A stretch of DNA of 598 nt from Escherichia coli. GTDB taxonomy: Bacteria > Pseudomonadota > Gammaproteobacteria > Enterobacterales > Enterobacteriaceae. Positions 1 to 587 of the stretch are shown piece by piece (within the stretch, counting starts at the first letter, position 1; each line of letters begins with the position of its first letter). The notes beneath the pieces are model-generated. The model was not told the origin of the DNA and ran no database searches. It saw only the letters and a program-made list of their open reading frames with translations. The position numbers and the translations under genes were made by a program. The DNA lies in NCBI RefSeq assembly GCF_003334255.1, contig NZ_QOWU01000213.1. One strand, written 5' to 3'.

Positions 1-237
1 AAAAAAGGCGTTACGGACTTTCAGGGGAAGTAGTGGTCTGGTGACTGGAAATATGTACCGAAAAAAGAGGATTGTAACGACAGGCCGAACTATGAAATTC
101 AGGCCTTATTCACTGCCCCGCCAGTCCCGGTTACATCAGAAGAACTGGTTAAAGCTGTGCACTTTTATGAACAACTAAAACGCGAAAATCCACCAGCATC
201 CGGAAACCTGATTACAGATTCCCAGATAAGGCAATGA
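1..237 (+). pseudogene. 3' part of a protein-coding frame (frame 1) of unknown product, interrupted by an in-frame amber codon (TAG 31-33), ending at TGA 235-237
   Basis: Frame 1 is open from the window edge to 237 except for a single TAG at 31-33. It translates as KKGVTDFQGK*WSGDWKYVPKKEDCNDRPNYEIQALFTAPPVPVTSEELVKAVHFYEQLKRENPPASGNLITDSQIRQ*. The composition is balanced and protein-like, with about 31% G at codon position 1 and frequent CCG, CTG, AAA and GAA codons. There is no in-frame ATG between 34 and 237, and the only in-frame GTG (157-159) would give 26 aa. Frame 2 is also open from 2 to 175, but its translation has no Asp or Glu, is Arg/Lys-rich, and has only about 11% G at codon position 1, so it looks like an out-of-frame shadow. 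Whether the upstream gene simply ends at 33 or the whole stretch is a nonsense-disrupted gene cannot be settled from this window. Confidence 0.4.
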
Positions 238-307
238 GCTACCTGGCGCAGAACGGGCTGATAAGTATGGGGAATGTTTTACGATGAATATTTAGACTAA
301 AGAGTTT

Positions 308-322
308 GTAACGCTATGTAAG
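308..322 (+). promoter_or_regulatory. tandem direct repeat GTAAC-N5-GTAAG (10-bp periodicity), candidate response-regulator binding site
   Basis: Seen directly: GTAAC (308-312), spacer GCTAT, GTAAG (318-322), each half preceded by T. This resembles tandem half-sites of OmpR/PhoB-family regulators, for example the CpxR consensus GTAAA-N5-GTAAA, with 4 of 5 matches in each half. It lies about 85-100 bp upstream of the ATG at 408. It is a motif resemblance only and could arise by chance in AT-rich DNA. Confidence 0.2.
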
Positions 323-397
323 TGATTTTTTCTGGTTTAGATATTTATATGTCCGGCCAAACTGAGGTGTGTTTAAATGTAATTGCACATTGATTGT

Positions 398-403
398 AGG
401 AGG
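398..403 (+). promoter_or_regulatory. Shine-Dalgarno sequence (AGGAGG) for the downstream small ORF
   Basis: A perfect AGGAGG at 398-403 is followed by a 4-nt spacer (AATA) and ATG at 408-410. The in-frame GTG at 369 used by the supplied ORF track has only GAGG directly abutting it (364-367, 1-nt spacer), which is a poor geometry. Confidence 0.7.
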
Positions 404-407
404 AATA

Positions 408-587
408 ATGAAAAACGCATTGCAGTTTTTGTTTGTTGCGTTCTGGTTGTTCGTATCATGTATGCCCATCATCTTCACAGCAAGGTATATGGAAAAAGTT
501 GATGTTTTGATATTAATATTTGGATATATAAATGCCCTTTTTTTAGGGGTGTTCATGGCGGTCATGTGCATTGAATACTGGCGGTAA
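408..587 (+). CDS. small hydrophobic membrane protein, 59 aa, two predicted transmembrane helices, function unknown
   Basis: ATG 408 to TAA 585-587 encodes MKNALQFLFVAFWLFVSCMPIIFTARYMEKVDVLILIFGYINALFLGVFMAVMCIEYWR. There are two hydrophobic stretches (about residues 4-25 and 33-55) separated by a short charged loop RYMEKVD, with a short C-terminal EYWR. A strong SD sits upstream. GC is about 37% with rare codons (ATA x3, TTA, AGG, CGG, GGA). The supplied 72-aa ORF from GTG 369 is the same frame with an N-terminal extension that I consider unlikely. Confidence 0.7.
   Translation: MKNALQFLFVAFWLFVSCMPIIFTARYMEKVDVLILIFGYINALFLGVFMAVMCIEYWR

Follow-up and report, generated by a model that had tools for sequence, protein, structure and literature searches.

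The 17-codon open reading frame (ORF) at positions 234-287 of the window, the 598-nt stretch of Escherichia coli DNA analysed here, is in all likelihood (a probability of about 0.93) a non-functional relic and not a small gene. It represents the final 17 codons, left stranded, of a prophage gene of the phrog_660 family that has decayed. It is presumably not translated. The frame of this tail is still open because it was coding until recently and is only 27 codons long. The coordinates of the ORF, of the two remnants of the gene and of the lesions separating them are collected in Table 1.

The ATG of the ORF (234-236) overlaps a TGA (235-237), and the ATGA tetramer, read from the window sequence, occupies positions 234-237. 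The AAGG at 228-231 is followed by a 2-nt spacer (CA) and then by the ATG. All of these coordinates, which had been reported in the initial annotation, were confirmed on the window, and the judgment that the AAGG is too close to the ATG to act as a Shine-Dalgarno (SD) sequence is borne out by the length of the spacer. The size of the ORF is statistically ordinary and is such as chance gives. In 2000 dinucleotide-preserving randomisations of the 598-nt window, plus-strand ATG-ORFs of at least 17 codons occur 3.3 times on average, compared to 3 observed, and 98.5% of the shuffles contain at least one. The same shuffles contain 4.3 ATGA tetramers on average, and the window has 5. A promoter and terminator scan detected no element near the ORF. 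An Rfam scan of the surroundings gave nothing over positions 234-287 and found the sok RNA alone, 390 nt downstream. No mention of the peptide was found in a full-text literature search.

Table 1. Features of the window and their positions (in nt, counted from the first base of the window).
Feature	Position	Strand	Description
Reported 17-codon ORF	234-287	+	MSYLAQNGLISMGNVLR, then stop TGA 285-287
Frame-1 remnant, N-terminal and middle part of the phrog_660 gene (pseudogene body)	1-203	+	ATG of the gene is situated 80 nt 5' of the window
Frame-3 remnant of the C-terminal module of the gene	204-287	+	KPDYRFPDKAMSYLAQNGLISMGNVLR, then stop; TGA 285-287 is the ancestral stop
TAG nonsense codon in homologous frame 1	31-33	+	GAAGTAGTGG vs GAAGCCGTGG; CCG or CTG in intact relatives
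Junction of the 90-nt in-frame deletion (vs the 171-aa form)	183-196	+	Pairwise and multiple alignments
Junction of the frameshifting deletion	about 200-206 (CGG 201-203)	+	Gap after position 200
TGA at which shifted frame 1 ends	235-237	+	TG of the ancestral Met codon plus the A that opens the following codon (A-ATG-AGC)
ATGA stop/start junction of the family itself	284-287	+	H19J orf588 starts at this ATG, overlapping the orf688 stop
Candidate 59-aa ORF	408-587	+	MKNALQFLFVAFWLFVSCMPIIF...EYWR; SD AGGAGG 398-403; two hydrophobic segments
85-aa ORF	314-571	-	Overlaps the 59-aa ORF of the plus strand

Many E. coli chromosomes carry the window with 100% identity, and matches to it occur in 1823 of 5426 complete E. 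coli genomes. In E. coli strain MCJCHV-1 it is part of a lambdoid prophage. Cro/CI, YdaT and small genes of the replication region are located upstream, and hokD, a gene for a RusA-family nuclease and an antiterminator gene are located downstream. A complete hokD/sok type I toxin-antitoxin locus is positioned just 3' of the window (L001 8677-8848 and 8846-9001, equivalent to window positions 677-1001), and its sok RNA (window-equivalent 677-848) gives an Rfam match of 106.7 bits. The region from 80 nt upstream of the window to position 237 (L001 7921-8237) is annotated by RefSeq as a pseudogene, 'hypothetical protein; frameshifted; internal stop'. In strain Z226-5 (H47; NZ_CP159644.1) an IS1A insertion interrupts one copy of this stretch, which is further evidence that the segment tolerates disruption.

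Some database records that match the window deserve comment. Positions 1-197 have an 85%-identical match in Actinobacillus phage vB_Apl-pPE4, the listed host of which is Actinobacillus pleuropneumoniae. This host is unexpected for an E. coli lambdoid module; a mosaic exchange could lie behind the match, or the record could be mislabelled or contaminated. In phages vB_EcoS-640R1 and vB_EcoS-813R8, the annotation under the match to positions 1-598 is 'hornerin', evidently a mis-transferred name.

Sensitive blastn comparison with phage genomes splits the window into mosaic pieces. Positions 203-287 give a 79% match to phage ArgO145 and several Stx phages, and positions 204-304 match phage H19J. 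The ArgO145 and H19J matches are the 3' ends of intact annotated genes, which terminate at a TGA aligned to that at 285-287. The ArgO145 protein (ARW58325.1, 114 aa) has the C-terminus ...KAKPDCKLPDKAMSYLERNGLISVEDILR, and that of H19J orf688 (CAB38711.1, 205 aa) reads ...KAKPDCKLPDRAMDYLLRNGLVSAEDVLR. Many intact prophage proteins of E. coli have the same tail at their C-terminus, and intact relatives of 171, 141, 114 and 205 aa all end in ...KPDCKLPEKAMDYLKRNGLISVEDVLR at this TGA. The homology starts 10 codons upstream of ATG 234, which is therefore an internal Met codon, namely the conserved Met of '...KAM(D/S)YL...', and the ORF comprises the last 17 codons of the ancestral gene. At the protein level, the 29-aa peptide of frame 3 aligns with positions 167-193 of the phrog_660 profile, the last 27 of its 193 positions, with an E-value of 6.4e-7. 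The intact relatives cover the profile through its end. An acidic ED pair is conserved in the intact tails and is replaced by GN in the relic.

The N-terminal and middle part of the gene precedes this tail in a different frame. Frame 1 of the window reads ...WSGDWKYVPKKEDCNDRPNYEIQALFTAPPVPVTSEELVKAVHFYEQLKRENPPASG and aligns colinearly with the intact protein (171 aa) of strain HS1496. As a 104-aa form, the frame-1 part aligns with positions 34-124 of phrog_660 (E=3.6e-31). Both remnants are thus similar to the profile and colinear with it, frame 1 corresponding to the N-terminal and middle part of the members WP_001289994.1 (E. coli, 171 aa), ARW58325.1 and CAB38711.1 and frame 3 to their end. 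The colinearity extends to the nucleotide level in the comparison with the intact genes of HS1496, ArgO145 and H19J. HS1496 carries its 171-aa gene, which ends in ...KAQPDCKLPEKAMDYLKRNGLISVEDVLR at the TGA aligned to 285-287, at this very locus: the flanking genes are shared, hokD follows downstream, and the gene occupies the same position upstream of hokD as the window copy does. Unlike the intact members, however, the window copy has lost 151 nt, has its two halves in different frames, contains a nonsense codon and is classified by RefSeq as a pseudogene; no single uninterrupted frame leads to the C-terminus of the family.

The missing 151 nt are accounted for by two deletions. The 90-nt deletion lies between direct repeats AATCC(G/A)CCAG, of which a single copy remains at 187-196. 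An intact natural variant of 141 aa, P0035, carries the same 30-codon (90-nt) gap alone. The second gap is 61 nt long in comparison to the intact HS1496 gene and 57 nt long in comparison to the ATCC 8739-type copy, in which CGG is found on both sides. It took 20 codons of a conserved helix segment (ELTMWVKRLVSQLKKA). Because the total loss equals 1 modulo 3, the gene is read in frame 1 to the left of position ~203, whereas its tail is read in frame 3. Copies of the ATCC 8739 type combine the 90-nt gap with a 4-nt deletion and in-frame stops, and the window type corresponds to this type with the further 57 nt removed. In ATCC 8739 the RefSeq pseudogene runs to the ancestral TGA and so covers the small ORF. 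Near the window's left end, an A-run at positions -2 to 6 (L001 7999-8006) consists of six, seven or eight A among the copies, and the gene falls into length classes of 365, 366 and 367 nt. This run is a recurrent frameshift site in the pseudogene.

The probable course of events is as follows. The intact ancestral gene would have extended from the ATG 80 nt upstream of the window to the TGA at 285-287. Ninety nucleotides would then have been lost in frame between the two AATCCRCCAG repeats, giving the 141-aa form that is still intact elsewhere. The gene would next have been inactivated, and a further 57 nt would have been lost between the two CGG triplets. The shifted frame 1 would thereby have met its first stop at TGA 235-237, which by coincidence straddles the ancestral Met codon. 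Such a history has all the attributes of relic ORFs in decaying prophage pseudogenes: stepwise deletions at short direct repeats, frameshifts in homopolymer runs, nonsense mutations, and fragments of the old frame that are left open. There is no feature in which the window differs from this general pattern.

In phage operons, ATGA stop/start overlaps mediate translational coupling. A genuine example exists in this very family: at 284-287, the stop of H19J orf688 overlaps the start of orf588. In the window the ATG at 284 opens MNI and a stop alone, the downstream partner having been replaced relative to H19J. The overlap at 234-237 has the same 4-nt geometry, but it differs from true coupling junctions in that it is due to the deletion alone, is not reached by any translated upstream ORF in this sequence and is followed by an ORF that relatives do not maintain as an independent unit. 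Past the deletion junction, frame 1 continues as ...NLITDSQIRQ and then encounters its first TGA. The intact ArgO145 gene has the same tetramer in its interior, and there it plays no role. The coupling-like appearance of 234-237 is a by-product of the frameshifting deletion.

One alternative is a translationally coupled, functional 17-aa peptide, made by termination at TGA 235-237 and reinitiation at ATG 234. In its favour, the ATGA overlap does exist, every copy of the window type has the ORF open and an intact upstream ORF ends in ATGA in a few of them. It is very unlikely. The initial annotation had described TGA 235-237 as the stop of the upstream frame. The stop is indeed there, but it does not terminate an intact gene: frame 1 is interrupted by TAG 31-33, after which the next possible start codon is GTG 157. 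Moreover, in a genome that is 100% identical to the window, the A-run just before it has 8 A instead of 6. The frame of the gene's own ATG therefore enters the window as frame 2 and stops at TAA 176-178, 56 nt before ATG 234. To judge from these frames, a ribosome starting at the gene's own ATG should not reach TGA 235-237 in the window haplotype. The 2-nt distance of the AAGG, the loss of the conserved ED pair and the fact that the end of a larger protein accounts fully for the sequence also speak against a coupled peptide, as does the fate of the ORF in related copies. The latter was followed in 120 IMG/VR copies that share the 24-mer at window positions 291-314, which is downstream of the ORF, so that the state of the ORF played no part in the choice of copies. 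The IMG/VR numbers are counts of copies and not of independent events. The tail is of the intact type, within a full gene, in 30 of the 120 copies, and in 4 of these the Met codon has changed to Ile (ATA). The ATCC 8739-type decayed form accounts for 38 copies, 14 of which have ATA in place of ATG. All seven copies of another decayed type have a TAG inside the small ORF (MSYLA-stop-SG...). The remaining 45 copies are of the window type and the small ORF is open in every one of them, but this carries little weight because these copies are nearly identical to each other. The idea of a coupled small peptide thus founders on two observations: no translated upstream ORF reaches TGA 235-237, and among sister decayed copies the ATG is lost or a stop has appeared within the ORF. 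The only conceivable setting for termination-reinitiation would be a group of eight window-type copies (e.g. strain 23AR0303, WP_001529162.1), in which an uninterrupted 104-aa upstream ORF ends in ATGA. There, but not in the window haplotype, the arrangement of the frames would make the process physically possible. It could release the 17-aa tail as a separate, detached peptide, although we give this little credence. If it did occur, the deletion in strains of the 23AR0303 type would have turned one phage gene into a coupled gene in two pieces.

The small ORF had also been considered as an upstream leader peptide, which would regulate the downstream 59-aa ORF at 408-587. It does precede, on the plus strand that both share, an ORF with the strong SD sequence AGGAGG. 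This reading is extremely unlikely, however. The stop of the small ORF and the next start are 120 nt apart, there is no terminator-like site within 287-408, and the stability predicted for the RNA fold of 205-420 does not exceed that of shuffled sequences (z = -0.36). The two ORFs are not conserved together either: the ORF at 408-587 is open in 23 of the 25 copies in which the small ORF is disrupted by loss of the ATG or by an internal stop. Besides, the downstream ORF is uncertain as a gene. The N-terminal part and the tail could in principle be rejoined by programmed ribosomal frameshifting, if ribosomes passed from frame 1 to frame 3 within about 204-235: the overlap of the homologous frames is ~30 nt, and '...ENPPASG-KPDYRFPDKAMSYL...' would be restored by a -1 shift. 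There is, however, no slippery heptamer of the X XXY YYZ type in 150-237, on which ground this candidate was rejected, and no stable structure downstream. The copy is also broken by TAG 31-33 and by an upstream +2 frameshift, and lacks the 20 codons of the helix segment, which leaves frameshifting with hardly any likelihood at all. The initial annotation preferred an ORF that arose purely by chance and has no history. ORFs of such length are expected by chance, and the view that the ORF is probably not a real small gene stands. Chance as its cause does not, because the frame is the inherited ancestral coding frame and the significant homology to the end of phrog_660 reaches upstream of the ATG. 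The homology refutes a chance origin, the probability of which is negligible, and the practical conclusion, the absence of function, is the same as for the relic.

The two ORFs that lie 3' of the relic overlap on opposite strands. The ORF at 408-587, a candidate membrane-protein gene, is not annotated by RefSeq in the records inspected, but is predicted by other pipelines with a length of 59 or 72 aa. It is found only in close E. coli and Shigella relatives and had no match in PHROG or NCBIfam scans. The frame is uninterrupted in 114 of the 118 copies sampled, but all nine of its polymorphic sites are nonsynonymous. Phage PhiR42_1 has a minus-strand CDS annotated in the region of the 85-aa ORF at 314-571, in which 6 polymorphisms are synonymous and 12 are nonsynonymous. 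The two annotations conflict, and judging by these substitutions neither is supported by constraint.

Pfam and NCBIfam scans of the intact 171-aa relative gave no significant domain and no match, respectively, and hence no function can be assigned to the ancestral gene. A sequence search of the PDB produced spurious matches alone, to designed helical proteins and, weakly, to a helicase loader. An AlphaFold2 model of an intact relative, calculated from a 19-sequence alignment, has a mean pLDDT of 50 and a pTM of 0.27 and is too poor for use. Some likeness exists to the ead/Ea22-like proteins of the lambdoid early region. Positions 139-196 of the window match Ea22 or ead/Ea22-like genes at 83-85%, some homologs carry Pfam domain PF13935, and the same modular shuffling of N-termini and C-termini is observed. 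The intact 171-aa relative differs from these proteins in having neither a significant Pfam domain nor an NCBIfam match. The phrog_660 family thus shares mosaic modules with ead/Ea22-like proteins, but it is not assigned to the Ea22 family proper.

Conservation of the frame 234-287 in homologous loci had been proposed as a check on the small ORF, and its absence as a refutation. The frame is in fact conserved in relatives, but solely as the C-terminus of a longer protein, and as a refutation criterion the lack of frame conservation would have been misleading. The result removes a candidate small gene and is of little biological weight; RefSeq already flags the pseudogene. Its lesson is one of method. 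A short ORF that begins at an ATGA right after the apparent end of a gene can be the out-of-frame tail of that same gene, and conservation of its frame in relatives supports a small ORF only where the homology does not continue upstream of the start codon.
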